Assembly (NCBI GenBank): GCA_025934695.1
Contig: JAICWS010000004.1
Location: 193,496-257,495, forward strand
Length of the DNA stretch: 64,000 nt
Direction of reading: 5' to 3'
From: Alphaproteobacteria bacterium
Lineage (GTDB): Bacteria > Pseudomonadota > Alphaproteobacteria > Micavibrionales > UBA2020
A program made the translations under genes and the position numbers. The notes under the pieces were generated by a model. That model was not told the DNA's origin, made no database searches, and saw only the letters and a program-made list of their open reading frames with translations. Shown piece after piece: positions 18,082 through 62,695 of the stretch (position 1 is the first letter of the stretch; each line of letters opens with the position of its first letter).

Positions 18082-18089
18082 GGCCTCTG

Positions 18090-18122
18090 ATACTACAGAA
18101 TTTCCATAATTATGTCAAATAT
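18090..18122 (-). promoter_or_regulatory. sigma70-type promoter TTGACA-N17-TAGTAT with extended ATATTTGACATAAT box
   Basis: -35 at 18113-18118 and -10 at 18090-18095 (minus strand). Only 8 nt separate the -10 from ATG 18081. Confidence 0.45.
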
Positions 18123-18150
18123 AAATCCGTAAATGTGCCAGACAACCGCG

Positions 18151-24692: not shown

Positions 24693-25552
24693 CCGACGAT
24701 AATCTTTCCAGGGCCGAACATCTGGCCGGAAAACTGCCGGGCCTGCTGCTCGAGGCCGACAAGGTCGCGCATACTTTCATGAAAGGCCTGCACGGCCGCC
24801 GCCGCGTGGGGCAGGGCGAGGCCTTCTGGCAGTTTCGCCAGTACCAGCCGGGCGATCAGCGCCGCGATATCGACTGGCGCCAGAGCGCCAAGCGCGACGA
24901 AACCTTCATCCGCCAGACGGAATGGGAAGCCTCGCAGACCGTGTGGCTCTACCGCGACGCGTCGGATTCGATGAACTATCGCGGCTATAAAAACCTGCCG
25001 ACAAAAAAAGATTACGCCGAAATCCTGCTGCTGGCGCTGGGTATCGTCATCCTGAACGGCGGGGAGCAGGTAAGCTTGCTGGGAACCAACCTTGCGCCGC
25101 AGACGACGTACAATGCCATCCAGCGTCTGTATGAGACCTTGCCCGTGCAGACGCATCTGACGCAGACCGGGCGCCCGGTCGCCGCGCGGTCGGAGGTTGT
25201 GCTGTTCAGCGATTTCTTCTTTCCGATCGAGCAACTCACCACCTATTGCGAGGCGCTGGCGCTGCGCAACGTGAAGGGCTATCTCGTCCAGGTGCATTGC
25301 CCGTCCGAAAAGACGCTGCCCTTCAAGGGCCGCATGAAATTCTACGACATCGAGAATATGGGTGCCGAGCCCGTCATTCTGCCGCAGGTCGAAGCCGTGC
25401 GCGAACAATACGAGCAGAAATTCATCTCACACCAGGAAGCCTTGCGCGCCGCCGCCCAATCCTGGGGCTGGCGCTTCACCTCCGCCGACACCTCCCAGCG
25501 GCCGGAAGATGTGCTGGGGCGGCTGTATAATGATCTGGCGGTGAAGAAATGA
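24689..25552 (+). CDS. DUF58 domain protein (MoxR/BatA-type operon member)
   Basis: 287 aa. 'FWQFRQYQPGDQRRDIDWRQSAK' is the DUF58 signature. ATGA overlap with the upstream gene. Confidence 0.8.
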   Translation: MTDDNLSRAEHLAGKLPGLLLEADKVAHTFMKGLHGRRRVGQGEAFWQFRQYQPGDQRRDIDWRQSAKRDETFIRQTEWEASQTVWLYRDASDSMNYRGYKNLPTKKDYAEILLLALGIVILNGGEQVSLLGTNLAPQTTYNAIQRLYETLPVQTHLTQTGRPVAARSEVVLFSDFFFPIEQLTTYCEALALRNVKGYLVQVHCPSEKTLPFKGRMKFYDIENMGAEPVILPQVEAVREQYEQKFISHQEALRAAAQSWGWRFTSADTSQRPEDVLGRLYNDLAVKK

Positions 25553-25572
25553 TGGAGAGGGTTTTTCTGGTT

Positions 25573-25721
25573 GCAAGTACCCTCATCCTAGCCTTCTCCC
25601 AGGGGGAGAAGGGACTAACGGCGCGCTTCGCGCAAGAATTTAAATTATTAATTACTTTCGCGTCAGCGAAAGTCCTCAGTCCCCTCTCCCTTTGGGAGAG
25701 GGTTAGGGTGAGGGTACTTGC
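25573..25721. repeat. MITE/REP-like element family A, inverted copy
   Basis: Reverse complement of the 8315-8455 element. Lies between DUF58 and the next operon gene. Confidence 0.8.
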
Positions 25722-25739
25722 CACAGGAGCGGTCGTATA

Positions 25740-28466
25740 ATGTTCTCCCTCGGCGGCATCACATTCCTGACACCGTGGATACTGGCGGCCGTCGCCGGCG
25801 TACCGGTGCTGTGGTGGATTTTGCGCGTCATGCCGCCGCGGCCGCGGAGCATCAAGTTCCCGGCGCTGTTCCTGCTCAAAGACTTGCAGACCGACATCAA
25901 GACCGCAGCGCATACGCCCTGGTGGCTGCTGCTGCTGCGTTCGCTGATCGTGATCTTCTTCATTCTTGCGCTGGCGGACCCTGTGCTGCGGCTGACCGGC
26001 GGCATGCCGGGCGACGGCGCGGTGCTGATCGCGGTCGACGACGGCTGGAGCGCCGCCGCCCACTGGCAGGAGCGTCTCGACAAGCTCAAAGAATATGTGA
26101 CGGTCCTGCGCCGCACCAACCGTTCCGTCGTTTTCCTCCCCACCGCTCCGGAAGCGCAGGACGGCAAGATCCACGCCTACGGCCCGATGAAGCCGGACGA
26201 GGCGGAAAAATGGCTCGACCACCTGAAGCCTTACCCCTGGCCGCGCGATGCCGCGGAAGCCGCGCATGTCGCCGACGACACGGTCAAGCGTGCAGGCGTG
26301 ACCTATGCCGTTTATTTAAGCGACGGCACGGCTGACGATCCGGCCGATATGTCGGCGCTTTTCAAGTCGCTCGAGGCCGCGGGCGGATTGACGGTCGTAA
26401 ACGATGCGGATGTGAACACGCCCTTTATCCTGCGTAGCGAGCGGACCAAGCCCGGCGACGTCGCTTTCACGCTTGAGCGCCTGGCCCCCGCCGCGACGGA
26501 CCAGTCGATGATCCTCGCTGCCTATACGGCGGAGGGCAATGTGCTGGATACGAACAAGTTCAGCTTCCCGTCGGGCAAGACCACCTTTAGCGTCAAATGG
26601 GATATTTTGAGCGAGATGCGCTCCAAGATCGCGCGCTTCGCGCTGGAACAGCCGCAGATGGCCTCGGCCACTTCGCTCACCGATTCACAGTGGCAGCAGC
26701 ATCCGGTCGGTATCGTGGCCGACCCGTCGCGCAAGGAGAATGCCGGCTTCCTGAATGAAGTCTATTACCTGCGCCGCGCGCTGGAGCTCAACGGTGCCCC
26801 CGAGATCGACCAGCCGGGCGCGCTTTTGGAAAAATCGCTCTCCGCCATCATCTGGCCCGACAGCGCGGCCCTGACCGCGAACGAGCGCAATGACCTGTTC
26901 AATTGGGTGCAGGGCGGCGGCTTCCTGATCCGCTTCGCGGGACCGAACCTGTCGGGCGGCGCTGAGGACGATCCCTTGCTGCCCGTCCACCTGCGCTATG
27001 GCGAGCGGGCGATGGCGGGCGCCATGACCTGGGAAAAACCGGCGAAGCTCGGGCCCATTCTGCAGCAAAGCCCGCTTTATGGTCTCGATGTGCCGAAAGA
27101 CGTGACGGTCACGCGCCAGCTGCTGGCCGATCCCACGCCCGAGGTGTTCGAGAAAACCTGGCTGCAGCTCGAAGACGGCACGCCGCTCATCACCGGCGGC
27201 AACGTGGGCAAGGGCTTCGTCGTCCTCATCCACACGACTGCAGGGCCAGACTGGTCGGATTTCTGCTATTCCGGCCTCTATGTCGAGGCGCTCCAGCGCA
27301 TGATCGCGCTCTCCTCGGGCATCGGCAGCTACAAGCCCGATGCCGTGCTGCCGCCGCTGTTGGTTATGGATGGCTTCGGCCATCTGCAGCCGCCGGACCG
27401 CAAGAGCGTGATCGCCGCGGTCGACCCGCATCATGATTTCACGCCCTCGCCCGCGACGCCGCCTGGCCTCTACGGCGACAGCCGCCAGTTCCATGTCTAT
27501 AACCTCGGCGACGCGCTCCCCGAAATGAAGGCGGTGAACCTGCCTTCGACGGCGACGGTCGAAACCTATAAGCTGTCGGGCGAGAAGAGCCTCAAAAGCG
27601 ACTTCCTGAAATATGCTCTGTGGCTGCTGGCGCTCGACACCATCCTGACGCTGTGGCTGCGCGGGCTGTTCGGCAGCTTCGTCAAAACCGGCGCTACGGC
27701 GGCGCTGGCGCTGATGATCATCCTGCCGCAAATGGCGCAAGCTGCCGATATCCAGCCAGCCGATCTCTCGTCCGGGATTTATCTTGCCTATGTCGAAACC
27801 GGCGACCATGATACCGACCAAGTCAGTTTCAACGGGCTTTACGGGCTGATGAAGGCGATCACCGCGCGCACGACGATCAAGGTCAAGGGCGTGCAGAATG
27901 TGAACCTCGACACCGATCCCTTGCTCTATTATCCGTTTCTCTACTGGCCGATGACCGAAAACCAGCCGGAACTGTCCGAAGCCGCCGCGCGCAACGTGCA
28001 GAATTACTTGGGCCGCGGCGGCATGATCCTGTTCGACACGCGTGACCAGCAGTTCGGCAACCTCAATTCTCCGACGCTCGGCACCAAGAAATTGCGCGAG
28101 CTGACCAGGCACATCCAGATCCCCGAGCTCATGGACGTGCAGCCCGGGCATATCCTGACAAAAAGCTTTTATCTGCTCGATGATTTCCCCGGTCTCTACA
28201 CCGGCGGCAAGATCTGGGTCGAGAAAGAGCCGAGCCCCAGCTATGACTCGGTCACCTCCGTCATCATCGGCGGCAACGACTGGGCGGCGGCCTGGACGCG
28301 CGATCCCAACGACCGCGCGCGCTTTCTCGTCACCCCGGGCGGCGAGCAGCAGCGCGAAATGGCCTATCGCTTCGGCGTCAATGTGATCATGGCGGCGCTG
28401 GCAGGGAATTATAAATCCGACCAAGTGCATGTGCCCTATATCCTCGAAAGGATGCACCGGCAATGA
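25740..28466 (+). CDS. BatA-N (N-terminal double-TM) / DUF4159 large membrane protein
   Basis: 908 aa. 'FLTPWILAAVAGVPVLWWILRVMPPRPRSIKFPALFLL' matches the aerotolerance BatA N-terminal domain. C-terminal region is DUF4159-like. Confidence 0.75.
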   Translation: MFSLGGITFLTPWILAAVAGVPVLWWILRVMPPRPRSIKFPALFLLKDLQTDIKTAAHTPWWLLLLRSLIVIFFILALADPVLRLTGGMPGDGAVLIAVDDGWSAAAHWQERLDKLKEYVTVLRRTNRSVVFLPTAPEAQDGKIHAYGPMKPDEAEKWLDHLKPYPWPRDAAEAAHVADDTVKRAGVTYAVYLSDGTADDPADMSALFKSLEAAGGLTVVNDADVNTPFILRSERTKPGDVAFTLERLAPAATDQSMILAAYTAEGNVLDTNKFSFPSGKTTFSVKWDILSEMRSKIARFALEQPQMASATSLTDSQWQQHPVGIVADPSRKENAGFLNEVYYLRRALELNGAPEIDQPGALLEKSLSAIIWPDSAALTANERNDLFNWVQGGGFLIRFAGPNLSGGAEDDPLLPVHLRYGERAMAGAMTWEKPAKLGPILQQSPLYGLDVPKDVTVTRQLLADPTPEVFEKTWLQLEDGTPLITGGNVGKGFVVLIHTTAGPDWSDFCYSGLYVEALQRMIALSSGIGSYKPDAVLPPLLVMDGFGHLQPPDRKSVIAAVDPHHDFTPSPATPPGLYGDSRQFHVYNLGDALPEMKAVNLPSTATVETYKLSGEKSLKSDFLKYALWLLALDTILTLWLRGLFGSFVKTGATAALALMIILPQMAQAADIQPADLSSGIYLAYVETGDHDTDQVSFNGLYGLMKAITARTTIKVKGVQNVNLDTDPLLYYPFLYWPMTENQPELSEAAARNVQNYLGRGGMILFDTRDQQFGNLNSPTLGTKKLRELTRHIQIPELMDVQPGHILTKSFYLLDDFPGLYTGGKIWVEKEPSPSYDSVTSVIIGGNDWAAAWTRDPNDRARFLVTPGGEQQREMAYRFGVNVIMAALAGNYKSDQVHVPYILERMHRQ

Positions 28467-30568
28467 GTGCATCCTTCGAATGGTCGCCGTACCTGCCTTA
28501 TATCTATTACGCCGCGCTGGGCGCGGCGGCGCTGGCCGCGATTATCTTCGTCGTCGTCCGCCGCATGTGGGATTTCGCCTGGCGCGCGCTGTTCTTCGGC
28601 GCGCTGATCTTCCTCTTGCTGAACCCGATCATCCTCAATGAAATCCGCTCCGGTTTGCCCGACAAATTCGTCATCGTCGTCGATGATTCCGCCAGCCAGC
28701 GCATCGGCGGCCGCGACAAGGTGACGGAACAGGCGCTCGACAATCTGCTGGGCAAGCTGAAAAATTTCAAGAACCTCGACCCGGTCGTGATCCATTCCGG
28801 CTCGGACATCATGGCCAGCCGCGGCGAGAGCACGAACCTGTTCACGACGCTGCGCAACAGCATGATGAGCATTCCGCAGGCGCAGGTGGCCGGCACCGTT
28901 TTCATCACCGACGGTCAGGTGCATGATGTGCCCAAGCCCGAAGACCTGGGCGCGCTCGAGCGTTTCGGGCCGTTCCATGCCATATTGACAGGCCGCAAGG
29001 ACGAGTTCGACCGGAAGGTCACCGTCGTCTCCGCGCCCAAATACGGCGTGCTGAACGAGAATATCTCGGTCACCGTGAAGGTCGAGGAGATCGGGCACAA
29101 CACCGGTCCCATGACCATGGAAGTCTACCAGGACGGCCAGAAGATCGACGATGTCACAATTTCGGCGGACGAATCGCGCGACTTTTCCTTCAAGGTCAAT
29201 CACCCTGGCCAGAACGTCTATGAATTCGCGGTGCCGGTGGCGGAGGGCGAGCTGACGCCGTCGAACAACCGCGCGCCCGTCATCGTCAACGGCATCCGCG
29301 ATCGTCTTCGCGTGCTGCTCGTTTCGGGCTCGCCCCATATGGGCGAGCGATCATGGCGCAACCTGCTCAAATCCGACCCGTCGGTCGACCTGATCCATTT
29401 CACCATCCTGCGCTCGCCCGATACGCTCGACAGCACGCCGACCTCGCAGCTGTCGCTGATCGTGTTCCCGGTGGACGAGCTGTTCCAGCAGAAGATCAAC
29501 GACTTCGACCTCATCATCTTCGACCGCTTCGACCACTATCAGAATTTCGGCATGCTGATGCTGCCGATGTACTTCCGCAACATCGAGAACTACGTCAAGC
29601 GCGGGGGGGCCTTCCTGATGGCGCTCGGCACCGGCGAGCCGGAGCAGGGCGGCCAGTCCAGCGCGCTCGACGAGATCATGCCGCTCGATATCAGCGGCGC
29701 CATGTCGGGCGGGCAGACGCCGATCATCAAGCTGCCCTATGTGCCGGAGCTGACCGACCTCGGCAAGCGCCACCCGGTCACTGCCGATCTCGAAAAACAG
29801 TATGAGAAGAAGAAATGGGGCTCCTGGTTCACGCAGGTCGACGCGCCGAAAGTGCGTGGCGATACGCTCATGAACGGCGTCTACGGCAAGCCGCTGCTCG
29901 TCCTTGACAAGGTGGGCGAGGGGCGCGTGGCGATGCTGGCGAGCGATAACGTCTGGCTCTGGTCCAAGGGGCTCGATCAGGCGGGGCCCTATACCGACCT
30001 GTTGCGCAACGTGGCACACTGGCTGATGAAAGAGCCCGAGCTGGAAGATGATTTTATCAAGGCCGAGGCCAAGGGCACCGATGTCACGGTCTCCGAGCGC
30101 GACCTGACGCCCGAGACCAAGACCGTCCTGATGACCACGCCCTCGGGTGAAACGCAGAACGTCACGCTGACCAACCGCGTGCCCGGATGGGTGACCGCCG
30201 ACGTCGTCGCCAATGCCAGCGGCATCTACAGCTTCGACAATGGCAAGAAAAAGGCCTTCGCGGTCGTGGGCTCCGCCTCGAGCGAGGAATTTTCAGATGT
30301 CCGGACCACGCCGGACAAGCTCAAGCCCGTCGTCGACCGCACCAAGGGCGGAATCATCTGGTTCCAGGAGAATCAGGGCTTTTCCCTTAAAGAAGTGAGC
30401 GATTCCGCGAGCGTGATGGGCTCCGACAGTTGGCTCGGGATCAAGCGCAACAAGGCCTATACGGTCGACAATGTGGAGACCTTGTCTCTAGTGCCTAACT
30501 GGCTGACGTTGTTTATTATTTTGTCGCTGTGCGTCTGGGCCTGGTGGAAGGAAAGCGGCACCCGCTGA
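28463..30568 (+). CDS. Membrane protein with VWA-like/GATase-like domains (Bat-operon partner)
   Basis: 701 aa. Two N-terminal TM segments and one C-terminal. 'VIVVDDSASQRIGG' is MIDAS-like. ATGA overlap with the upstream gene. Confidence 0.65.
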   Translation: MSASFEWSPYLPYIYYAALGAAALAAIIFVVVRRMWDFAWRALFFGALIFLLLNPIILNEIRSGLPDKFVIVVDDSASQRIGGRDKVTEQALDNLLGKLKNFKNLDPVVIHSGSDIMASRGESTNLFTTLRNSMMSIPQAQVAGTVFITDGQVHDVPKPEDLGALERFGPFHAILTGRKDEFDRKVTVVSAPKYGVLNENISVTVKVEEIGHNTGPMTMEVYQDGQKIDDVTISADESRDFSFKVNHPGQNVYEFAVPVAEGELTPSNNRAPVIVNGIRDRLRVLLVSGSPHMGERSWRNLLKSDPSVDLIHFTILRSPDTLDSTPTSQLSLIVFPVDELFQQKINDFDLIIFDRFDHYQNFGMLMLPMYFRNIENYVKRGGAFLMALGTGEPEQGGQSSALDEIMPLDISGAMSGGQTPIIKLPYVPELTDLGKRHPVTADLEKQYEKKKWGSWFTQVDAPKVRGDTLMNGVYGKPLLVLDKVGEGRVAMLASDNVWLWSKGLDQAGPYTDLLRNVAHWLMKEPELEDDFIKAEAKGTDVTVSERDLTPETKTVLMTTPSGETQNVTLTNRVPGWVTADVVANASGIYSFDNGKKKAFAVVGSASSEEFSDVRTTPDKLKPVVDRTKGGIIWFQENQGFSLKEVSDSASVMGSDSWLGIKRNKAYTVDNVETLSLVPNWLTLFIILSLCVWAWWKESGTR

Positions 30569-34743: not shown

Positions 34744-35558
34744 GGTATTGCTCCTTTTGCAATTGCGAGAGAAATCTCCTCTCCCCCTGCGGACGAGAAA
34801 GGGGAGACAAAAGGCAGACGCACTCCCCGAGAAATTACATCGTCTGCGATTTCGAGACCGGAAAAATTATCGAGGCGAAGGGCGGGCGCGACGCCAGCTT
34901 CTCGCCCTGTTCCAGCTTCAAGGCCGCGATTGCGCTGATGGGCTATGACAGCGGCGTCCTGATGGACGAAGAGACGCCTGTCTGGGATTACAGCCCTGAA
35001 TACGACCCGCATTGCCTGATGATGCTGGATAACTGGAAGAAGCCCTATAATCCCGCGCTGTGGATGCAGAATTCATGCGTCTGGTATTCTCAATGCGTTA
35101 CCCGTGCGCTGGGCATGGAGCGCTTTCAACATTACGTCGATGCCTTTGGCTACGGCAACCGCGACCTTTCGGGCGGGATTCTGCGCGCCTGGCTGACAAC
35201 GAGTCTTGTCATTTCATTGCGCGAGCAAGTGGAGTTCTTTCGCAAGCTTGCCGCGGGGCAGCTGCCCGTCTCCGCGCATGCGATGGCGATGACCAGGCGG
35301 CTGATCGCGTCGGGTCCGTGCGCCGGCGGCGAGTTGTTCGGCAAGACGGGCTCCGGCTATACCGACATCGCCAAGGGCCTGCAGCGCGGCTGGTACGCCG
35401 GCTGGCTGGAGAAGGACGGGCGGAAGTATTTATTCGCGGCGCTGAACGACCATTTGGGCGCCGGCTATGCGGGATTGCAGACGAAGGAATTCATGAAGGG
35501 CGTGCTGGAGCGCCTGTTCGGCAGCGAGGCGGCACATGCTGATACCGCTGTCGGATGA
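34740..35558 (+). CDS. Class D beta-lactamase-like / penicillin-binding domain protein lacking a signal peptide
   Basis: 'SSFK' (SxxK), 'YGNRDLSGG' (YGN), '[13 protein letters not shown]', 'KTGSG' (KTG). ATGA-coupled to smpB. N-terminus is Cys-rich and not hydrophobic. Confidence 0.7.
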
Positions 35559-36468
35559 GAATGAAGACGTTGATACGCCTTGGGCCAACCGGCTGATCAT
35601 CGGCCTTTGCACTCTTGTTTTTATCTTCGAACTATTCATGGGCAGCGACAGGCACCTGTTCTTCCACGCTTTCGGCTTTTCGGCGCATGACTATATTCAA
35701 GGGGCGCACGGGCTGAAGAAATTCCGCGGCGCGCTGGAGGCGGCTTTCGACCTGCTGCGCACGGGCTGGATCACGGCCATCACCGCCCAGTTCATTCACG
35801 GCGGTTTCGCCCATATCCTGGGCAACATGCTGTTCCTGTGGATTTTCGGCGCGAGCGTCGAACATGCGATGGGATCGCTGCGCTATTTCGCTTTTTACAT
35901 CCTCACGGGCGTGCTGGCGAACTTCACGCAGGCCTGGATCGGCGTGGACAACGGGCTGCCCTGCATCGGCGCCTCGGGCGCCATCAGCGGCGTCATGGGC
36001 GCCTATATGGTCTTTTACCCGCGCGCGATCATCAATGTGATGGTCTGGCGTTCCTTGACCTCCGAGCCTTATATCGCGCGCTGGCGGGCCTGGCAGTACC
36101 TGCTTTTTTTCTTCTTCACGCAGATGCTGACGGGGCTGCTGACCTGGGGCAACCAGTATCTGTCCGTCGCCGTCTGGGCGCATATCGGAGGTTTCGCCTT
36201 CGGCGCGGGGATGGCGTGGCTTTTCAGGGACCCGGACTTCCTGTTCAAGGAGGAGGGCGAGCGCCTGTTGGGCCTCAACGGCAATCCCGCGCCTCGGACG
36301 ACGGCGTACCAGGAATTCATCCTGTGGCTCGGCCGCCGCGGGAGAGATAATGCCGATACCGCTTTCGGCCCGGCGCGCAAGCGCGTCCACCACCGCCCCT
36401 CGCTGAAAGAAATGCGCCGCAAAGCCAACGCCGAGCGCGCCGAGACCATCAAGAAGCGGGGATGGTAA
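35536..36468 (+). CDS. Rhomboid family intramembrane serine protease
   Basis: 'HILGNMLFLWIFG' and 'GASGAISGVMGAY' (GxSG), with 6-7 TM segments. Confidence 0.85.
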   Translation: MLIPLSDENEDVDTPWANRLIIGLCTLVFIFELFMGSDRHLFFHAFGFSAHDYIQGAHGLKKFRGALEAAFDLLRTGWITAITAQFIHGGFAHILGNMLFLWIFGASVEHAMGSLRYFAFYILTGVLANFTQAWIGVDNGLPCIGASGAISGVMGAYMVFYPRAIINVMVWRSLTSEPYIARWRAWQYLLFFFFTQMLTGLLTWGNQYLSVAVWAHIGGFAFGAGMAWLFRDPDFLFKEEGERLLGLNGNPAPRTTAYQEFILWLGRRGRDNADTAFGPARKRVHHRPSLKEMRRKANAERAETIKKRGW

Positions 36469-39058: not shown

Positions 39059-39170
39059 AAAATTATTTATCCAGCAAAAACAAGATGTTGAACGTTGCGT
39101 TTGACAGAATTTGCTCCGCAATGCTACAACATGTCATCATCTAGTTTTTTTCAAGGAATGCGCCACAAGC

Positions 39171-39836
39171 ATGACGCCGGCTGAACGAAAACGCGCTGAG
39201 GATCTCTGCGGCAAGGCGACGCCGGGCCCGTGGAATTTCGCCGATGAAAGCTGGGTCGGCGCCTCGCAATTCTGGGTCTATTCGAATCCCGATCCTGATG
39301 TCACCACGCGCGGTGCGCCTGTGTTTGGCAACATCGAAATCGACATGAACGGTCTCAACAACCTCGCTTTCATCACGGACGCGCGCATGCTTCTGCCCAA
39401 GGCGCTGCAGCAGATCGAGGCCTGGCAGGGCGATATCGAGAATATGAAAGCGGGCTTCGCAAAAACATCCGCCCCGATCATGACGGTCGAGGAGATCAAG
39501 CGCGCAAAGGAAATCAGCGCGCAGGCGACACCCGGCGAATGGAGCTGGGAGAACGAAGACAAATTCCTCGGCCCCAACGTCGTCACGCTTTACGCGGGGC
39601 GCGGGTCGATGGCGCATGGGCTTAACCTGTTCGGCCGCTTCGACGGCGGCGCGAACCGCGACAATGATCTCGCCTTCATCACCGAGGTGCGCGCGCTGCT
39701 GCCCAAGGCGCTCGACCACATGGACAAGCTCGGCAACACCGTGCAGCGCATGAAGCGCCCCGGCCTCGCGCTGCGGCCCCAGACTTACAAGCCGTCGGCG
39801 CCCAAACCGCCCCAGCCGAAACCGCCGGGGATGTAA
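39171..39836 (+). CDS. Ead/Ea22-like protein with an internal tandem domain duplication
   Basis: Two ~100-aa repeats, each with 'ATPG(P/E)W' and '(N/D)LAFIT..R.LLPKAL'. Pro-rich C-terminus. Confidence 0.55.
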   Translation: MTPAERKRAEDLCGKATPGPWNFADESWVGASQFWVYSNPDPDVTTRGAPVFGNIEIDMNGLNNLAFITDARMLLPKALQQIEAWQGDIENMKAGFAKTSAPIMTVEEIKRAKEISAQATPGEWSWENEDKFLGPNVVTLYAGRGSMAHGLNLFGRFDGGANRDNDLAFITEVRALLPKALDHMDKLGNTVQRMKRPGLALRPQTYKPSAPKPPQPKPPGM

Positions 39837-41647: not shown

Positions 41648-41789
41648 CGCCGCGCCCGGTGCGCCGCGATCCTTAAAGCAGGAGTTCTTTTCAGGCGGCG
41701 GTAACCTTTTGGGCCGCCTCGCCGAAAAGTGCATTTGACAGATAAAGCGACTCGCCTTAAGCTTTGAAACACCAGTACCGGAGACAGTG

Positions 41790-41975
41790 ATGAAGATCGA
41801 ATGGGTCGAAGAGAACTTCGCGGATTTGGGCGGCCAAGACGGCGTCTTCGCCAAAGCCGCCGACCGTTCGAACCGCACGAACCTGGCGACCCAGCCCAGG
41901 AAAATGGTCCCGATGATGCGCACCTGCCATGGCGATCTCGTCAAGGCGCCGACCTGCGTGATGGCTCACAGATAA
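41790..41975 (+). CDS. Possible small protein (61 aa)
   Basis: GGAGA SD upstream. MKIEWVEENFADLGG...TCHGDLVKAPTCVMAHR. No homolog recognised. Confidence 0.3.
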   Translation: MKIEWVEENFADLGGQDGVFAKAADRSNRTNLATQPRKMVPMMRTCHGDLVKAPTCVMAHR

Positions 41976-42035
41976 TCTTTTATTTTCAGTAAATTAACCC
42001 AGAATGTTTCATGTGAAATATCAGGCGTCTGCTTG

Positions 42036-42068
42036 GTATTTGACATAATACATACGATGGGTTATAAA
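42036..42068 (+). promoter_or_regulatory. sigma70-type promoter TTGACA-N17-TATAAA with GTATTTGACATAAT box
   Basis: -35 at 42040-42045 and -10 at 42063-42068, upstream of the 42197-43514 operon. Confidence 0.5.
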
Positions 42069-42196
42069 AGATGAGCTGATTGCAGCTCCAGGACAGGCGG
42101 TTTTTTAGGATAGCCAAGGGTTTCTCGCCTGTCTCTCATGCATGACTTGCAAAACATCCGGGCGTTTTGATGCGTTCATCCAGACGTTGAAGAAGC

Positions 42197-42607
42197 ATGA
42201 CCAATGATGTTGTAGATCCAGAAGATTTCGACGATCCGGGCATGTCGCTGACGCCGGACGGCAACTGCCGCGAGTGGCGCGACGCAAAGGGCCAGCTGCA
42301 CCGCGACAATGACCTGCCGGCCGTCAAATGGCAGGACGGCATCCGCTGCTGGTACCAGCATGGCAAGCTGCACCGCGAAGCCGGCGCCGCCTATGTGGAG
42401 CCGAATGGCCATACCGAGTTTTACATCGACGGCGAACAGGTGAGCTTCGCGCAACATCGCGAATGGCGGCAGAATTTACTTGAGGAGCGCGAGCGGCAGC
42501 GCGAGGAACGTCTGCAGCAGATTATGGAAGTGGCGCGGGATGCGACGGTCCTGAAATCCACCATCACCGTCGGCCGCGTCCTGCGCCTTAGGGCCGCCTT
42601 TTCATGA
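42197..42607 (+). CDS. MORN-variant repeat protein (YwqK-like repeats)
   Basis: 136 aa. Repeats 'G.LHRDNDLPAV.W.DG..CWYQHGKLHREAGAAYVEPNG..EFYIDG'. C-terminal tail DATVLKSTITVGRVLRLRAAFS. Confidence 0.6.
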   Translation: MTNDVVDPEDFDDPGMSLTPDGNCREWRDAKGQLHRDNDLPAVKWQDGIRCWYQHGKLHREAGAAYVEPNGHTEFYIDGEQVSFAQHREWRQNLLEERERQREERLQQIMEVARDATVLKSTITVGRVLRLRAAFS

Positions 42608-43218
42608 CGCTGCCTTTCAATCAGTCCTCTGCCGATATGCGGAAGACCGCACGCGGCATTCTCGACAGCTGGGGAGTGGAATACACGCGGGAACCCAACG
42701 GTTCGCTGCTGATCACCGGCGATATGTGGGACAAGGGGCCGGCGGGCCTGAGCGCAATGAGCAAGATGCGCACATTGGCAAAGCAACTGCTCGGCGACGA
42801 CCGGGCGCTGATTATCTATAACATGGCTGAATTTGCCGAAGAATATTCGCGCTACCGGATCACGGGGGTGCCGCCGGGTTACAGCGGCTTTGAGGAAGGT
42901 TCGCCACTCGCCAACGAGGTGCGCAAGAGACCCAAGGTGCTGCTGGTGATGGACGAAATTGAAAAGGGCAAGGCAGAGGTGGTGGCAATTCTCGACCGGG
43001 TGCTGGCGGATGGAATGCTCACCGATGGGACGGGCCGGCAGGCATCCATGGAGGGCGTCATTCCCATCAAGCTGTCGGCGGAAGTGTCGCGCCTGGAATG
43101 CGGACACCGCGAACGCGAGAGGCTCGACAAATTCATCGCGCACGCTACCGTCCTTCGGCGCTCGATGACAGTCCGAAAGCCGCTGCAGCTGAAGCAAACG
43201 CCGGCGGTTGCATCATGA
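42604..43218 (+). CDS. Degenerate Clp/Hsp100 D2-like AAA+ domain protein (Walker A disrupted)
   Basis: 204 aa. 'GVPPGYSGFEEGSPLANEVRKRPKVLLVMDEIEKG..V...LDRVLADGMLTDGTGR' parallels ClpB '[57 protein letters not shown]'. 'GPAGLSAM' replaces GPTGVGKT. ATGA overlaps at both ends. Confidence 0.6.
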   Translation: MTLPFNQSSADMRKTARGILDSWGVEYTREPNGSLLITGDMWDKGPAGLSAMSKMRTLAKQLLGDDRALIIYNMAEFAEEYSRYRITGVPPGYSGFEEGSPLANEVRKRPKVLLVMDEIEKGKAEVVAILDRVLADGMLTDGTGRQASMEGVIPIKLSAEVSRLECGHRERERLDKFIAHATVLRRSMTVRKPLQLKQTPAVAS

Positions 43219-43514
43219 GGCAGTCCTTCAACGCCGCCGCCGGAGGCGCGCCTTCGATGGTCCTGCTCGACGAGGCCGACAGGGCCAGTCCCGACGTCCT
43301 CAGGGAGTTACTCAAGATCATGGACGCGGGCATCCATAAGCCGGAGGTTGTCAGCGCACTTTCCGGCAACGCGCCTTACCTTCCGGGCTCCGAAGAAGTT
43401 GTGGCGGACGGGTGGAAGTCGCTCGACGATGTCGTGGCCGAGGCCACCGTCCTGCAATCCCCGCTCACCGTGGGCAGGCCGATCAGCTTCAAGAACCGGC
43501 TTGCGTTTTTCTGA
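43215..43514 (+). CDS. Small protein with an AAA+ Walker-B-like fragment
   Basis: 99 aa. 'MVLLDEADRASPDVLRELLKIMDAG'. Tail EATVLQSPLTVGRPISFKNRLAFF. Confidence 0.5.
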   Translation: MRQSFNAAAGGAPSMVLLDEADRASPDVLRELLKIMDAGIHKPEVVSALSGNAPYLPGSEEVVADGWKSLDDVVAEATVLQSPLTVGRPISFKNRLAFF

Positions 43515-43566
43515 CGCGAAAGCTTGGTTTAATTTTACATGATTTCAAGTCCATAGGGGTTTTTTA

Positions 43567-43595
43567 TTTTCAATAATCTTGTTTTCTGATATAAA
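43567..43595 (+). promoter_or_regulatory. Promoter-like TTTTCA-N17-TATAAA
   Basis: AT-rich region upstream of 43623. AAAGGG SD before the ATG. Confidence 0.3.
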
Positions 43596-43622: not shown

Positions 43623-44306
43623 ATGCAACTCGCGAACCGGATCGGCAATATCGAGCAGTCGAACGAGCAGGTCGACTTCGACCAGATCGAGCGCGATATC
43701 GGCCAGGAAATCGGCGAGGAAGCGGCGGTCGATGTGAACCCGTCACCGGCGCAGCAGGCGGCGCAGAACAAGGGGATCCCGAATGCGCCGCCCCCGACCA
43801 TTCCGCATTTCCTCGCCAGCCTCGCGCGCGGCAAAGTTTTTTCGAAGTTCACGGCGATGCAGCCGCCGCAGGCACAGGCGCGGCCCGTCGGGCTCCTGGG
43901 CCACCTGAAAGCCGCGATGGCGGCGATCGCCGAGCCGAAGCGCCCGCCGCAGGCGCCGCTGGAAAGCAAATTCGATCCGCGCCTGAACCGGCAGCCCGCG
44001 AACGACGCGAAGAAAAATCCGCAAGTCACGCCGACGCCCGTCGACCAGGACCAGCCGCGCGCCTCGCGCAGCCGCTTCGCGCGCACGGTCGACACGCTGA
44101 TGTCGCTGGGGGCGCTGCCCGCGCAGCTGCTCGTCGAGATCGGCCGCTTCCGCCACCAGAAGGAAAGCCGCTTCGGCTCCGCGCAGCGCCTCGAAAAAGG
44201 CCTGGCGCAGGGCGACGACGAAGCCCTCCGCATCGCGCAGGCCAATCCCGCGCTGGTGAAGAAAAAAGACCTCCAGCCGCCCGCGCCGACCGGTCCCGCG
44301 CTTTAG
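43623..44306 (+). CDS. Hypothetical, largely low-complexity (Pro/Gln/Ala-rich) protein
   Basis: 227-aa ORF with an SD. No recognisable domain. Confidence 0.5.
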   Translation: MQLANRIGNIEQSNEQVDFDQIERDIGQEIGEEAAVDVNPSPAQQAAQNKGIPNAPPPTIPHFLASLARGKVFSKFTAMQPPQAQARPVGLLGHLKAAMAAIAEPKRPPQAPLESKFDPRLNRQPANDAKKNPQVTPTPVDQDQPRASRSRFARTVDTLMSLGALPAQLLVEIGRFRHQKESRFGSAQRLEKGLAQGDDEALRIAQANPALVKKKDLQPPAPTGPAL

Positions 44307-44436: not shown

Positions 44437-44610
44437 CAATTAGGTATAGTGTCCCCGGAATTCCCGCTGCGTCACATGATGCGGCACATGCGCCGCCACT
44501 ACTCTTGCCAGTCTTGCCATGGAGGGAAGTATACTTTGCGAGGGAGGGAGTCAATTAGGTATAGTGTCCCCGGAATTCGGGAATCAATTAGGTATAGTGT
44601 CCCCGGAATT
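44437..44610 (+). repeat. Three exact copies of a 26-bp direct repeat CAATTAGGTATAGTGTCCCCGGAATT
   Basis: Copies at 44437-44462, 44552-44577 and 44585-44610. The last two are separated by 7 nt. Confidence 0.9.
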
Positions 44611-44912: not shown

Positions 44913-45347
44913 CTATTTGTTATCGATTGTATTCAGGACGGTCGCGATTGCCTCTGAAATGCCGATTGTAAAAACGCCAGCATGTTGATCTGCCTGCCAA
45001 CGCTTATAGCTATCTTCAAAGTCCTTCTTTGGTCTAACATCGACAGCGATTAGATGGTCAACAGACGAGGCAAATGCCCGTTCATCGAAAGGCAAATAGT
45101 CGATTTCCGTCGGTCCTGATTGATCTGACTTGCTCGGCAGATCTATCACCGACACATGCACTACCGTATTCCCGTGCCACGATTCGACACGACCGATGAT
45201 GACTTTTGCCGTTGTCGGTGGTGATGCCTTTATCGACCACTCTTGGCCGGGTACAAACTCCATTTCTCGTCCATTCGGGGCGTCAGCATACGCCCACCTG
45301 GGTAAGGGCAATGCCAATAATAGTGCAACAAACGCCCATCTGATCAT
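44913..45347 (-). CDS. Hypothetical secreted protein (144 aa)
   Basis: Signal peptide MIRWAFVALLLALPLPRWAYA. ATGA-coupled to the upstream immunity-like gene. Confidence 0.6.
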   Translation of the reverse strand: MIRWAFVALLLALPLPRWAYADAPNGREMEFVPGQEWSIKASPPTTAKVIIGRVESWHGNTVVHVSVIDLPSKSDQSGPTEIDYLPFDERAFASSVDHLIAVDVRPKKDFEDSYKRWQADQHAGVFTIGISEAIATVLNTIDNK

Positions 45348-45628
45348 TGTTCCTCCAATAACTCGCGAATTGTTCGTAACAGCTTTAGTAGTGTTTGACT
45401 ATTGTTCGTAGAAATATCCGCAGGAGTGTTTCTCCATAATGCTTGAAGCTCATCGGCCCCATGCTCCCCAGTAAGGATTTCATCTAGGAATCTGCGGACC
45501 ACGCTCCTCTCTGTTTCGTTTAGCGCCTGAACGCCAATTCGAGCCGCATCCTCTAGCGATGTATGTATAAGGAATACATCCTGATGAAAGTAGGAGCACA
45601 GTTTATTAAATTCTTTCGGCGCGATCAT
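45344..45628 (-). CDS. CdiI-like contact-dependent-inhibition immunity protein
   Basis: 'FNKLCSYFHQDVF' resembles the 'YFHQDW' motif of CDI immunity families. ATG 45628 forms an ATGA overlap with the Rhs toxin stop. Confidence 0.6.
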   Translation of the reverse strand: MIAPKEFNKLCSYFHQDVFLIHTSLEDAARIGVQALNETERSVVRRFLDEILTGEHGADELQALWRNTPADISTNNSQTLLKLLRTIRELLEEQ

Positions 45629-47487
45629 TTGTCTATAGTTCCCGGCCAAGCTGATACAACAGAAAATCCATTTGCTGACTCTGGATTATGTCGAATTACA
45701 ACCCCGACTCCAAATGTAGTACGCTGCTCGCCGCTAGGATAGAGGACTTCGTATCCGGTGCTACTCAGGAAACTAGAGCCGACAAGCGCCTCTTTGAGTG
45801 TTCCGTTGGCAACTAGGGCTACGACTGCTGAGTTTTGGGAGAGGGCCGAGTTAACCAATTTGGTCGCAGACTGGAGAGAACAGAACGAGCTTGCTCGCTC
45901 AAGGTGCCAGCCATCATTATTAGCCGCCAGTAACCGGAGCCACAGGTATTCGCTGCTTTTTCCTACGTGCTCAGCGATGGTGTGTCCACCATTCGTTTCC
46001 TCTTCCAAAAGATCAATGCGATATCCTTGGAGAGGTGTGCGCAATTTACTCAAGCCCAACGGGTCGAAACCACTGACCGGATTTGCTCCATAGGAATATA
46101 AGTTGACGCCGCCAGCTTCTCCCATCGGATCTTTGTTAAGCCACCGGCCTGTCGCGGGATCGAAGGGCCGCGTCATTGAAAGGTTGAGGCTACTAATGGG
46201 GTGAGAGAACAATTCGGCATATTGATAATCTGTTGCCGTGCTTCCGTTACTACGAGTAACAGCCCCGTAAGGCGTGTAATCATACGATTGGACAAGATTT
46301 CCGGTCGTGGCGTCCAACACATCTCTGACCGCATCGAGTTGGTCCGGCATAAAGGTGACGTTCGGCGTCGGATTGATCGTGCTGGTATAGGTGATGCCGG
46401 TCACCTCATCATCCGCATCATAGCTGAATGTCTTCACCTGGCCCAGCGCGTCGGTCACGGACTTCAGGCGGCTGGTGCTGTTTTCGTAGGTGTAAGTCTC
46501 AGTCTTGGCCGAGGATGTGCCATAGGCGTAGATCTTGTCGATAGGGCGGCCTTCGATGTCGATGTCCCAATGCGTGATGTTGCCTTTCGCATCGGTGATT
46601 TCCTTCAGCTTGCCGTTTTCGTAATAGCTGTAGGAGGTCGTGCGCGTGGTGCTGCTGGTCAGCGGTTCGGTGACCGATGTGAGGCGCTGGTCGGCGTCAT
46701 AGCCATAGGTTGTCACGCGTCCCAGCCGGTCGGTGTATTTGCGCAGTTCCATGCTGGGCGTGCCGACATAAGGGCCGCTCTGGAAGTTATAGTCGAACAG
46801 GTCCGTCGTTGAGTCGGGATAGGTGATGGAGGTCACGCGGTCGAGGTTGTCGTAGGCATAGGTCAGCGTATAGCCCTGGCTGTCCGTGCGCGTCTGCACG
46901 CGGTCGTCAGCGTCATAGGTCAGCGTCAGCACCGTCTGGCTGTTGGCGTTGACGATGGTCGACAGGCGGTTGGAGGCGTCGTAGTTGTAGGTCGTCACGC
47001 CCGCGTTCGGGTCGGTCACCGTGTGCAACTGGCCGTTGGTCTGATACGTATAATTCCACGTCTTGGAATCGGCACCAGTATAGGTTTGCGGCTCGTGCTG
47101 GGTGTTATAGCTGCCATAGGTCGCAATCGTGTTGGAGTTCTGCTTCACCGTTAAAAGATCGTTGTGGTTCGCGGCATAGGCGAATGTCGTCGAGCGGCCC
47201 ACCGGGTCGGTGACTAACTGCGGCACCCAGGTGAAAGGTTGAACGGAAATCTGCTGAAGTGAGACAGACTGCGAAGCCCCGCTGTCGAGAAGGCGCGCAA
47301 CGTTTCTCGGCTGGTCGGGATAGCCGCCAGTATAGCCGCTGGGAGGCTGGTTCCAGTAGGAAAACCACAGGCGCTTTTCCAGCGGCGGCTTGATGCTGGC
47401 GACTTCGCGCCCGACCGTCAGGGTCGAGCCCGTGTTCGGGTCATGGTACCAGTGAATTGTTTTCGACTTGGTGAAATCTTCCGACAC
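45625..47487 (-). CDS. N-terminally truncated RHS-repeat protein with RNase A-like (CdiA-CT type) C-terminal toxin domain; orphan cassette
   Basis: YD/RHS repeats ('YTYD..DRV', 'YGYDADQRLTSVT'). Core end 'NLYSYGANPVSGFDPLGL'. Toxin region 'NGGHTIAEHVGKS..ASSF..A..LV..AL..N'. The frame is open only to the stop at 47608-47610 and the first canonical start is GTG 47487 with no SD. Confidence 0.75.
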   Translation of the reverse strand: MSEDFTKSKTIHWYHDPNTGSTLTVGREVASIKPPLEKRLWFSYWNQPPSGYTGGYPDQPRNVARLLDSGASQSVSLQQISVQPFTWVPQLVTDPVGRSTTFAYAANHNDLLTVKQNSNTIATYGSYNTQHEPQTYTGADSKTWNYTYQTNGQLHTVTDPNAGVTTYNYDASNRLSTIVNANSQTVLTLTYDADDRVQTRTDSQGYTLTYAYDNLDRVTSITYPDSTTDLFDYNFQSGPYVGTPSMELRKYTDRLGRVTTYGYDADQRLTSVTEPLTSSTTRTTSYSYYENGKLKEITDAKGNITHWDIDIEGRPIDKIYAYGTSSAKTETYTYENSTSRLKSVTDALGQVKTFSYDADDEVTGITYTSTINPTPNVTFMPDQLDAVRDVLDATTGNLVQSYDYTPYGAVTRSNGSTATDYQYAELFSHPISSLNLSMTRPFDPATGRWLNKDPMGEAGGVNLYSYGANPVSGFDPLGLSKLRTPLQGYRIDLLEEETNGGHTIAEHVGKSSEYLWLRLLAANNDGWHLERASSFCSLQSATKLVNSALSQNSAVVALVANGTLKEALVGSSFLSSTGYEVLYPSGEQRTTFGVGVVIRHNPESANGFSVVSAWPGTIDK

Positions 47488-47583: not shown

Positions 47584-47627
47584 GAATTGAGTGTTGTGTC
47601 CCCGGAATTAATAGTGTCACCGGAATT
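47584..47627 (+). repeat. Two degenerate copies of the 26-bp repeat (..GTGTCCCCGGAATT, ATAGTGTCACCGGAATT)
   Basis: 47584-47609 matches the 44.4-kb repeat at 20 of 26 positions. 47611-47627 matches its 3' 17 nt with 1 mismatch. Same orientation. Confidence 0.75.
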
Positions 47628-59590: not shown

Positions 59591-60847
59591 ATGAATGAGA
59601 CTGGCGCGATTACCCCGCAGATACCGATGTCCGAAAGCACATTTTACATGCTGCGCTGCGTCGTCGCCGTGGCCTGCGCGGACAATGTCATCAAGGAACA
59701 GGAACTGCTTTTCTTACGGGCGCTCTTGTCCCACTTCAAGCACCATATGATCGTGTCGCCCGAGCAGGTCGCGCAGCTCAAGGAAGACCTGAAGACCCAC
59801 CAGAACATCGAATACCTGCTGCCGCATGTGACCAATCCGACCGACCGCGAGCAGCTGATCCTCTATGCCGGGCTGCTGGCCCAGTCGGACGGCGAGGTAC
59901 ATCCGAGCGAAGAGGTGGTGCTGCGCAAGATCAACTCTTTCTGCGGCGGACCCGCGCCCGCGGCGACAACAGATGCTGCTCATCCCGCGGGGGCGCCTGC
60001 ATCCCACGCCGTTGCTGTTCCCGTCCCCATGGGCGGCGGCGGCGCGCCGCCGGTCGACATGAACGCTTTCATGCAGGAAGTGCGCGACGTCGTGCGGCAG
60101 GAAGTCTACCAGCAGGCGATGAAGACAAGCGGCGTCGACTCCAAAACCCACCCCGTCGCGATCATCGACGCGATGGCGGAAAAAGGCCGTGTCGTGCCGC
60201 ACACGGACTCCTATCACGTGGTGGCGCAGGAGCCGAAACTTGGCAAAGATATGCGGCACAACATGGTCGAGGGCGAAAGGCTCCTCGGCAAGGCGCATTT
60301 CCATTATATTTTCTGGGTCTATACGCTGATCCTGGCAGGCCTGCTGATGGGCTTCGCGCGGCCTGTAGGACGCGTATTGACGCAAGCGGCGGGCTATGCG
60401 CAGCAATATATCTTCAGCGACGCAGGCGCCTGGCTCGGCCCCGGCAATATCGAGACGCTGGGCAAGATCCTGGCCAATCCTGCCTGGGCGCACTGGCCGG
60501 CGCTGGTCATGTATGTCGCCGCCGTGCTCTTCGTGCTGTGGCGCATCGCCGTCTACCACACGACGGAAATCGTCGTGACCGACAGCCGCATGGTCGTCAA
60601 GCAGGGCATCTTCATCATCCGCACCTTCAAGTGCGACATGGCGAACCTGGGGCAGGTCGACGTGAACCAGTCGCTGCTAGGCAGCTGGCTGGGCTATGGC
60701 TCCATCCACGTCTATACGCGGAACTGGCAGGGCCATGGCAACGCCGTCGAGGCGGAGGGCATTTACCTGCCGCCGATCGCCGACCCCCATTCTTTCAGCA
60801 CATTGGTGGACCGGGCGCGGCGGATGTGGCGCACCCGGAGCGTCTAG
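59591..60847 (+). CDS. TerB-like N-terminal domain - TM - bacterial PH (bPH/YdbT-like) domain protein
   Basis: 418 aa. 'FYMLRCVVAVACADNVIKEQELLFL..AGLLAQSDGEVHPSEE' is TerB-like. 'TTEIVVTDSRMVVKQGIF..DMANLGQVDVNQSLLG' is bPH-like. Confidence 0.65.
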   Translation: MNETGAITPQIPMSESTFYMLRCVVAVACADNVIKEQELLFLRALLSHFKHHMIVSPEQVAQLKEDLKTHQNIEYLLPHVTNPTDREQLILYAGLLAQSDGEVHPSEEVVLRKINSFCGGPAPAATTDAAHPAGAPASHAVAVPVPMGGGGAPPVDMNAFMQEVRDVVRQEVYQQAMKTSGVDSKTHPVAIIDAMAEKGRVVPHTDSYHVVAQEPKLGKDMRHNMVEGERLLGKAHFHYIFWVYTLILAGLLMGFARPVGRVLTQAAGYAQQYIFSDAGAWLGPGNIETLGKILANPAWAHWPALVMYVAAVLFVLWRIAVYHTTEIVVTDSRMVVKQGIFIIRTFKCDMANLGQVDVNQSLLGSWLGYGSIHVYTRNWQGHGNAVEAEGIYLPPIADPHSFSTLVDRARRMWRTRSV

Positions 60848-62536: not shown

Positions 62537-62695
62537 TTGACGGCCCGCGACCCTGTGCTGACATCACGGCAGCCATCGGCCTTTGACACCGCCCTTCAGA
62601 CCGGCATCCAGAACAACATGCATGAGATTGAGCGCCCGCCCCCCACAGGCGCGGATGCTTCTGCCATTTTTCAATCCAGGAAAGGCAATCGATGA
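62537..62695 (+). CDS. Possible upstream micro-ORF (52 aa) ATGA-coupled to the ankyrin gene
   Basis: GAAGGAGG SD at 62523-62530, a 7-nt spacer, then TTG 62537. Its stop overlaps ATG 62692. Confidence 0.35.
   Translation: MTARDPVLTSRQPSAFDTALQTGIQNNMHEIERPPPTGADASAIFQSRKGNR

Follow-up and report, generated by a model that had tools for sequence, protein, structure and literature searches.

In this article we describe a short, basic C-terminal tail that is common to the three proteins of a small operon (genes W1, W2 and W3) of an uncultured alphaproteobacterium from soil (GTDB lineage Micavibrionales, UBA2020; contig JAICWS010000004.1 of GenBank assembly GCA_025934695.1). The stretch of 64,000 nucleotides that was analysed, positions 193,496 to 257,495 of the forward strand of the contig, is called the window, and all coordinates of window features are counted from its first nucleotide. 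The tail is anchored at the C-terminus, it is conserved as a peptide, it is carried by unrelated protein bodies, and it is basic on bodies that are acidic. Since a fixed-position, peptide-conserved basic module on unrelated acidic proteins lacking a Sec signal has the profile of a transport tag, we tentatively regard the tail as a lineage-specific export, sorting or translocation tag, an explanation which we hold to be possible rather than probable; the transport function itself, and the identity of the machine that would read the tail, are what we infer from these properties. The genes and their tails are the following.

42197 to 42607, forward strand: gene W1, 136 amino acids, with an acidic N-terminus, MORN-like beta-hairpin repeats, a long charged helix and the tail, in this order.
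42604 to 43218, forward strand: gene W2, 204 amino acids, with a degenerate ClpB/ClpC D2-like AAA+ core, a helix and the tail.
43215 to 43514, forward strand: gene W3, 99 amino acids, a tandem paralogue of W2 with an internal deletion, consisting of the family N-terminus, a Walker-B segment and the tail.
42542 to 42604, forward strand: tail of W1, ATVLKSTITVGRVLRLRAAFS, net charge +4 in the last 20 residues, no acidic residues.
43144 to 43215, forward strand: tail of W2, ATVLRRSMTVRKPLQLKQTPAVAS, net charge +5.
43443 to 43511, forward strand: tail of W3, ATVLQSPLTVGRPISFKNRLAFF, which fits the degenerate AAA-type DNA pattern described below.

An earlier note on this DNA, made without database searches, had described three genes coupled through ATGA. 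The open reading frames and both overlaps (W1/W2 at 42604-42607, W2/W3 at 43215-43218) can be read directly from the sequence, W2 and W3 each being in the -1 frame relative to the preceding gene, and the G+C content at third codon positions (0.73-0.75) is typical for the genes of the window. The pattern common to the three proteins is ATVL-x4-TV-[GR]-[RK]-x-[LI]-x-[LF]-[KR] running to the free carboxyl end, about 23 residues altogether and basic. In all six reading frames of the window the expression ATVL-x(3-6)-TV has exactly three matches, each of them 21-24 residues before the stop, and a profile hidden Markov model (HMM) of the tail scores 55-61 bits with the tails of W1, W2 and W3 against 7 bits with the next-best six-frame segment of the window, which bears out the claim that all three proteins carry one C-terminal tail. 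The tail is always at the extreme C-terminus, and in most of the tails the [PA]-L position is followed by exactly 9 residues. In both families, the MORN-like one of W1 and the AAA-fragment one of W2 and W3, a charged helix of 20-30 residues stands ahead of the tail; the common module of about 22 residues that had been proposed is there, but the shared stretch is longer and includes this helix.

It was examined how far the two families resemble each other in the tail with a profile made from MORN-type tails alone, which was run against 38,925 six-frame segments (the window and 169 loci, about 2 Mb). The best non-self matches were AAA-type tails, all of them C-terminal, with E-values of 8e-7 to 3e-3 (1.3e-5 for W3, 2.9e-3 for W2), and noise began at E 0.6; the likeness of the tails between the two families exceeds chance. 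Pairs of tails within the window have 47-53% peptide identity and 53-65% nucleotide identity, and their proportion of synonymous differences (pS, 0.49-0.66) is higher than that of nonsynonymous differences (pN, 0.29-0.38); across the families pS (0.5-0.8) again exceeds pN (0.3-0.4). Furthermore, MORN/AAA tail pairs within one genome show no greater likeness than pairs between genomes. Because pS exceeds pN and the same-genome pairs are not closer, the tails have undergone neither recent duplication nor gene conversion, both of which were ruled out as explanations also by the low nucleotide identity. The earlier observation that synonymous codons differ, so that the peptide rather than the DNA is conserved, stands on the same figures.

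The physical character of the tail is equally consistent. In 10 proteins the last 20 residues have a net charge of +3 to +5 and 0-2 acidic residues, and the bodies of the tail-bearing proteins are acidic (pI 4.4-6.3). By inspection these proteins have no N-terminal signal peptide; the neighbouring Sel1 protein has one, and has no tail. The AlphaFold2 (AF2) model of W1 reaches a predicted local distance difference test score (pLDDT) of 84.7, with strands at residues 16-82 and one long helix at 84-135, and its last 20 residues fall to a pLDDT of about 55 behind the confident body, as might be expected for a peptide that needs a partner. Judged from its residues, the tail would consist of three short h-x-h beta-type units with G-R-P and K-N-R turns between them. 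The residue at the very end differs between tails (S, F, A, L, T, P, I).

The protein bodies were examined separately. W1 had no match in Pfam (E <= 0.1) or NCBIfam, MORN and MORN_2 included, and a Foldseek fold search with it returned nothing significant. Among its relatives MORN_2 was seen in P0017 only, with an E-value of 0.003 and short of the cut-off, and the repeats of these relatives (W-x-x-x-G-K-L-H-R-D-x-D-L-P-A) are borderline MORN_2 for Pfam; the label MORN, originally given to W1, is therefore kept in the weakened form MORN-like. W2 is a member of Pfam AAA_2 (PF07724; 66.5 bits, cut-off 27) and matches NCBIfam ClpB at positions 592-712. When W2 is aligned to the D2 domain of ClpC1/ClpB, GDMWDKGPAGLSAMS takes the place of the P-loop, Walker B is intact, and the similarity to ClpC1 stops at the sensor-1 strand, after which W2 is truncated. 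The Walker A motif GxxGxGK[ST], sensor 2 and the C-terminal small domain of functional ATPases are absent from W2, and its description as a Clp-D2-like AAA+ protein with a broken Walker A proved correct. The AF2 model of W2 (pLDDT 49.7) is too unreliable for use. Among defence-system models the sole match was a generic AAA, PDC-M37B. W3 scores 26.3 bits with AAA_2, slightly under the cut-off of 27, and its orthologue in contig L001 (P0019) is 85% identical. The N-terminus of W3, MRQSFNAAAGG, resembles those of full-length members of the family (MRGDFNAAAAA in P0022, MRSAFNAAAAA in L004), and because of this match we consider W3 an internally deleted tandem paralogue of W2. The view that W2 and W3 are unrelated bodies with only a Walker-B-like stretch in common had to be abandoned: they are paralogues that share the family N-terminus, and they have the tail in common through paralogy.

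Seven related contigs (L001-L007), from JGI, ENA and Logan soil-type metagenomes, all contain a MORN-like gene followed by at least one AAA-fragment gene, each with the tail, and the two families are adjacent in every one of them. The tail-keeping homologues of W1 (P0002-P0004) are 80%, 57% and 45% identical to it; conservation in the MORN-like gene is about the same for tail and body, with a ratio of nonsynonymous to synonymous substitution rates (dN/dS) below 1. AAA-type tails are 82-94% identical across genomes and their bodies about 35%, so the tail is the most constrained part of the AAA-fragment family; the tail of W3 reaches 88-94% identity with the AAA-type tails in L006 and L001, its body about 35% with that of L006. 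The tail is old, and it is its peptide sequence that is under constraint. Additionally, tandem AAA copies decay by internal deletion with the N-terminus and the tail left behind, as in W3 itself, in L001 (481-567), where the W2 orthologue is almost wholly lost and an out-of-frame tail relic follows a large internal deletion, and in L006 (4171-4273), which like L007 has a third tail copy (43.7 bits) with a family-type start codon in another frame.

The order of genes in the related contigs is a 241-aa protein, a SUFU-family gene, a gene of 59-62 aa, the operon and a Pro-rich protein of 227 aa (p227). The immediate neighbours of the operon in the window are these.

41787 to 41975, forward strand: 62-aa gene directly upstream of the operon, 57-61% identical to genes at the same position in L006 and L003, no Pfam match.
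43623 to 44306, forward strand: p227, the downstream neighbour, with an acidic N-terminus, a Pro/Gln-rich middle and no tail; homologues lie downstream in L002 and L006.

No match to p227 was found in Pfam, NCBIfam or PADLOC. The 241-aa protein (p241; 39111-39836, forward strand) contains two copies of a domain of about 110 aa, the halves being 36% identical to each other via L006; its C-terminus is rich in Pro and Lys, Pfam gave no match, and the gene is conserved beside SUFU in the related contigs.

The distribution of the tail is narrow. When 1.84 billion representative proteins were searched exhaustively with the HMM, 6 matches were obtained at E <= 1e-3, five of which are members of the MORN-like and AAA-fragment families, matched at the very C-terminus, the sixth being a spurious repeat protein; a word-indexed search with the tail alignment gave 34 candidates and one match. 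Species genomes, 185,579 in all, were scanned with a degenerate DNA pattern of the AAA-type tail that had been validated on six loci and the window, and none contained it. A phage origin was considered and rejected, as this pattern did not detect the AAA-type tail in IMG/VR, and so was the idea that the tail belongs to the MORN-like family as such, as it is absent from 81 of 81 other MORN-like loci. The RecA protein of the window is 88-90% identical to those of two uncultured alphaproteobacterial metagenome-assembled genomes (MAGs), labelled Rhodospirillaceae and Bdellovibrionales (the NCBI placement of Micavibrio), and about 77% to those of Micavibrio and several other orders; neither tail nor operon was present around recA in 80 alphaproteobacteria, among them MAGs whose RecA is about 90% identical (CAYZCE01, JBBRVE01). 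The tail matched no Pfam or NCBIfam family and no PDB chain, the profile search of PDB sequences giving nothing significant, and it corresponds to no known sorting signal, in agreement with the remark of the earlier note that it fitted no signal known to its author. The module is undescribed but narrowly distributed.

As the two best non-family matches of the tail HMM in the window lay at the extreme C-termini of real genes, a matrix of 11 columns was built from operon-family tails only, and 58 likely real proteins of the window (18,969 residues) were scanned with it. After W3, W1 and W2 the following C-termini ranked highest; the last one was noticed by eye.

17332 to 17376, reverse strand: C-terminus PVAVKRPLRLKTPAA of the ankyrin protein 17329-18081 (Ank matches in Pfam), score 15.1, rank 1, 4 residues after the core.
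20405 to 20449, reverse strand: C-terminus GTVRRALKLKLKPGP of the HAD hydrolase 20402-21037 (Pfam Hydrolase/HAD_2), score 14.4, rank 2, 5 residues after the core.
63415 to 63498, forward strand: C-terminus ATVEAIEISKPLELKRPEPPKQPKSFSI of the ankyrin protein 62692-63501 (Ank matches in Pfam), score 9.8, rank 3, 13 residues after the core.
39738 to 39833, forward strand: C-terminus TVQRMKRPGLALRPQTYKPSAPKPPQPKPPGM of p241, a gene of the conserved cluster, a possible variant tail.

The internal maximum in the window is 9.7, and for the maximum of shuffled proteomes the median is 10.1 and the 95th percentile 14.7. In a control set of 1,150 proteins from other alphaproteobacteria (336,000 residues) the best non-family score was 11.9 anywhere and 9.6 at a C-terminus, and Fisher tests against these controls gave a p of 0.002 with the threshold set at scores >= 14, and of 0.0003 with it set at >= 9.6. 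A single clear orthologue was found for ankyrin protein 17329-18081 (P0024, 63% identical, from the sample of L005), and it keeps PIAVAAPLRFKGIRS; the third ankyrin gene, 18151-18888, has no tail, and orthologues of the HAD hydrolase were not found in the species genomes. The p241 orthologue in L006 scores 10.4 with 10 residues after the core, and a Band_7/SPFH protein of L006 that has no N-terminal anchor ends in KPLRLRLR, a weak match of 7.7 bits. The extension of the tail to ankyrin and HAD proteins is suggestive, being drawn from short stretches of sequence. Confinement of the motif to the three genes had been named in advance as a result that would speak against the proposal; the full tail is indeed limited to two families, whereas in the loose form the ankyrin and HAD C-termini come next.

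If the tail is a transport tag, its full form would be [DE]-A-T-V-L-x4-T-V-G-R-P-L-x-F-K-x3-hydrophobic-x-COOH, an extended, flexible and positively charged peptide with V-x-[KR]-[PA]-L-x-[LF]-[KR] as the minimal core. A dedicated receptor, encoded elsewhere in the genome, would read it, and would export or translocate acidic, effector-like proteins that have no Sec signal; the candidate cargoes are the MORN-like repeat protein, the catalytically dead Clp-D2 fragments and the ankyrin-repeat proteins. Several of the tail-bearing proteins are eukaryote-like repeat proteins or decaying tandem paralogues. Export or sorting had already been suggested in the earlier note, and the terminal position, the conservation of the peptide and the unrelated bodies agree with it; on the other side stand the paralogy of W2 and W3 and the absence of secretion-system and protease genes from the 64-kb window and the related contigs. 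Additional points weigh against a transport tag. Dead AAA+ fragments would be odd effectors, and the full tail occurs in two families of one rare lineage (about 7 contigs), a narrow base for a general signal. The ankyrin and HAD extension depends on short matches, scoring 15.1 and 14.4, that only come close to the 95th percentile (14.7) of the shuffled-proteome maximum, and the HAD match may be a native terminal helix. Known type IV and type I secretion system (T4SS and T1SS) signals are much less conserved in sequence than this tail; the Agrobacterium T4SS consensus reportedly described by Vergunst in 2005, R-x7-R-x-R-x-R, is absent from all tails, which have at most R-x-x-R-x-R or K-x-K-x-K. 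A related reading, which we find doubtful, takes the tail as the recognition peptide of an undescribed sequence-specific sorting system of an uncultured clade of Alphaproteobacteria; it would mark a lineage-specific, effector-like set including ankyrin proteins and domain fragments, in the full form ATVL-x4-TVGRPL-x-F-K... or the degenerate form V-x-[KR]-[PA]-L-x-L-[KR], and its receptor would be unrelated to those of type I, IV and IX secretion or of sortase and exosortase signals.

In the main alternative explanation the tail could act nearer home, as part of an assembly module private to the operon, in which the homologous C-terminal domains of W1 and of W2/W3, a charged helix with a beta-prone tail, bind each other or a common partner such as p227, the ankyrin and HAD matches being due to chance. 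The genes are always adjacent and translationally coupled, the shared region comprises a helix as well as the tail, the full tail is limited to two families in 1.84 billion proteins, and p227 and the 62-aa gene are conserved flanks, all of which would suit such a module. We nevertheless judge it rather unlikely, since the highest-scoring non-family sites of the window coincide exactly with C-termini of real proteins (p 0.002-0.0003), one of them conserved in an orthologue, since the fixed distance to the free C-terminus and the predicted disorder favour a docking peptide over a folded dimerisation domain, and since the free loss of extra AAA copies is unexpected for a stoichiometric complex. 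Binding to a membrane or a polyanion is improbable. It is suggested by the alternating hydrophobic and basic residues (PLRLK, ALKLKLK, PLSFKNRFAFF), which could form an interfacial amphipathic strand and hold soluble proteins at the inner membrane, by the net charge of +3 to +5 with an aromatic or hydrophobic end, and by the unanchored Band_7/SPFH protein of L006; that match is, however, weak, known bacterial membrane-targeting sequences are amphipathic helices, and the conserved Thr, Gly and Pro positions together with the ATVL block indicate specific protein recognition and not generic lipid binding.

The anchoring at the C-terminus and the hydrophobic penultimate residue would also fit a degron, through which an AAA+ protease or its adaptor would recognise the tail and make the proteins unstable or subject to conditional degradation. 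The last residues of some tails are AA or VAS, and smpB lies in the window, which is circumstantial only. This is still less probable than membrane binding, as the terminal residues vary, unlike those of LAA-type degrons, the conserved part is 10-20 residues from the end, and no protease or adaptor gene is linked to the operon. Least probable is a peptide that loads cargo into a protein shell. The targeting peptide of the Myxococcus encapsulin, PLTVGSLRRGG, begins with PLTVG, five residues that are identical in W3, P0020, P0022 and the native T3 targeting peptide (PMC7925596), and the C-terminal position on unrelated bodies is the same; against this, the widely conserved GSL motif is replaced by G-[RK]-[PA]-L, no encapsulin-like gene is present in the window or the related loci, the PDB search with the tail profile found no encapsulin cargo, and the types of cargo are unlike the known cargo enzymes.

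The value of a transport tag of this kind would lie in its sharpness. Type I and type IV secretion signals are mostly too degenerate for the prediction of substrates from sequence; with a sharply conserved tag, if the reading is true, the effector set or secretome of an uncultured Micavibrio-related lineage would be readable from genomes, and a simple peptide handle would be at hand to fish for the receptor. The locus would furthermore be an example of how a tag spreads and persists, one tail being present on a repeat protein and on dead Clp ATPase fragments and being kept as the bodies decay. If the tail is only a docking peptide private to the operon, the finding is of local interest.

Putative regulatory elements around the operon are the following.

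42040 to 42068, forward strand: promoter-like site of the operon, TTGACA, 17-nt spacer, TATAAA, read from the sequence.
42089 to 42135, forward strand: leader hairpin GACAGGCG...CGCCTGTC, an RNAalifold consensus kept in the window and L006, poor in L003.
43567 to 43595, forward strand: promoter-like site of p227, TTTTCA, 17-nt spacer, TATAAA, in an intergenic block that is near-invariant in the window, L001 and L006.

The -35 block TATTTGACATAAT and the -10 element TATAA upstream of W1 are conserved in L006 and L003, that is in three lineages including the window; a consensus scan missed this site because it demands T at position 6 of the -10 element. Between this conserved promoter and W1 there is a 5' leader of about 125 nt (42069-42196), which matches no Rfam family, and no known RNA element or repeat in Rfam overlaps the tails. 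The AT-rich motif TTTTATTTTCA[AG]TAA is present on both flanks of the operon, at 41977-41992 and 43561-43576, where 0.13 matches are expected by chance, and the downstream copy sits inside the conserved promoter-like block.

The window is otherwise an ordinary chromosome (pgi, rpe, rsmB, guaB, smpB, dapA, recA, a lytic transglycosylase), and protease-adaptor and encapsulin genes are absent from it. Adjoining recA there is an accessory island with SUFU, Sel1, an orphan RHS tip with an RNase-A-like CdiA-CT domain and a CdiI-like gene. The RHS C-terminal fragment (44913-47487, reverse strand) comprises 620 aa with RHS repeats and the RNase-A-like CdiA-CT domain PF18431, and after it come a small CdiI_2-like gene (45344-45649) and one of 144 aa; as the G+C content falls to 0.48-0.52 over 45-50 kb, the region resembles a polymorphic-toxin and immunity island. 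The short repeat AATTAGGTATAGTGTCCCCGGAATT has three exact copies at 44.44-44.61 kb (44438-44610), and its core GTGTCCCCGGAATT has two further copies at 47.60-47.63 kb (47595-47627); these copies bracket the RHS toxin-immunity cassette and may be recombination sites or sites of the repetitive extragenic palindromic (REP) kind. Three ankyrin genes in 64 kb (17329-18888, reverse strand; 62692-63501, forward strand), in addition to the Sel1, SUFU and MORN-like genes, are a density of eukaryote-like repeat proteins that is unusual for a chromosome of the free-living type. At 59591-62401 (forward strand) there are two adjacent TerB + bPH_2 paralogues with near-identical C-termini (...PPIADPHSFSTLVDRARR..), and at 24689-30568 (forward strand) genes for DUF58, BatA/DUF4159 (908 aa) and a 701-aa membrane protein resemble a Bat-like aerotolerance operon.

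Compared with known systems, the tail resembles the PEP-CTERM/exosortase, GlyGly-CTERM/rhombosortase, LPXTG/sortase and type IX secretion system (T9SS) C-terminal domain (CTD) tags in being a sequence-specific module at a fixed C-terminal position that marks unrelated proteins in a lineage. These tags, in contrast, consist of a transmembrane helix with a basic cluster or of a beta-sandwich of 80-100 residues, and they follow an N-terminal Sec signal, whereas hydrophobic runs in every tail are of at most 3 residues and signal peptides were not seen by inspection; the rhomboid gene at 35536-36468 is probably unrelated to the tail. The Dot/Icm E-block has no counterpart, there being no acidic residue in the last 20 residues of the operon tails. 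Family 1 encapsulin targeting peptides are likewise short conserved C-terminal peptides on unrelated proteins, and PLTVG is found here as in M. xanthus; the tail differs by G-[RK]-[PA]-[LI] in place of GSL motifs such as LTVGSL[KR] and by its spacing. At the place beside the cargo genes where a shell gene would be expected, the downstream gene p227 had no Pfam match, and no Linocin-type match was found in the window.

The signals of type I secretion, including those of the ankyrin (Ank) proteins of Rickettsiales, are uncleaved, occupy the C-terminal 50-60 residues with a helix followed by an unstructured end, and belong to acidic bodies low in Cys, all of which is similar to the proteins described here. 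Type I signals are rich in LDAVTSIF and poor in KHPMWC over the C-terminal 60 residues of an acidic substrate; in the proteins described here LDAVTSIF make up 40-62% of the last 60 residues and KHPMWC 7-33%, K/R and P being conserved and the bodies having a pI of 4.4-6.3. A control that is not secreted was noted to be of similar composition (PMC4315096). T1SS signals have been described as poor in K and P and without a consensus (PMC4315096), unlike the present tail with its conserved K/R and P and its net positive charge. RTX repeats and linked genes for ABC transporters and membrane-fusion proteins were not found in the window or the related contigs.

The substrates of VirB/VirD4 T4SS (Agrobacterium Vir, Bartonella Beps, Anaplasma AnkA/Ats-1) have an uncleaved signal in the last 20 or so residues, predicted to be unstructured and net positive with a basic cluster; they have no Sec signal and often contain eukaryote-like repeats such as ankyrin. 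The feature described for VirB/D4 signals is the clustering of positive charges in an unstructured C-terminus, and in Alphaproteobacteria Ank proteins are among the known substrates of both T1SS and T4SS, with T1SS export in Rickettsiales (PMC4315096). The net positive charge that T4SS signals have within the last 20-50 or so residues was found in the last 20 residues of 10 proteins (+3 to +5). The tail differs in its strong sequence conservation with the extra ATVL and TVG blocks, there is no BID-like domain, and the 64-kb window contains no T4SS or VirD4 gene. The tail lies outside every known signal family that could be tested; in its charge pattern the proposed tag would come closest to the signals read by a VirB/VirD4-type type IV coupling protein, with the type I (ABC) signals second.

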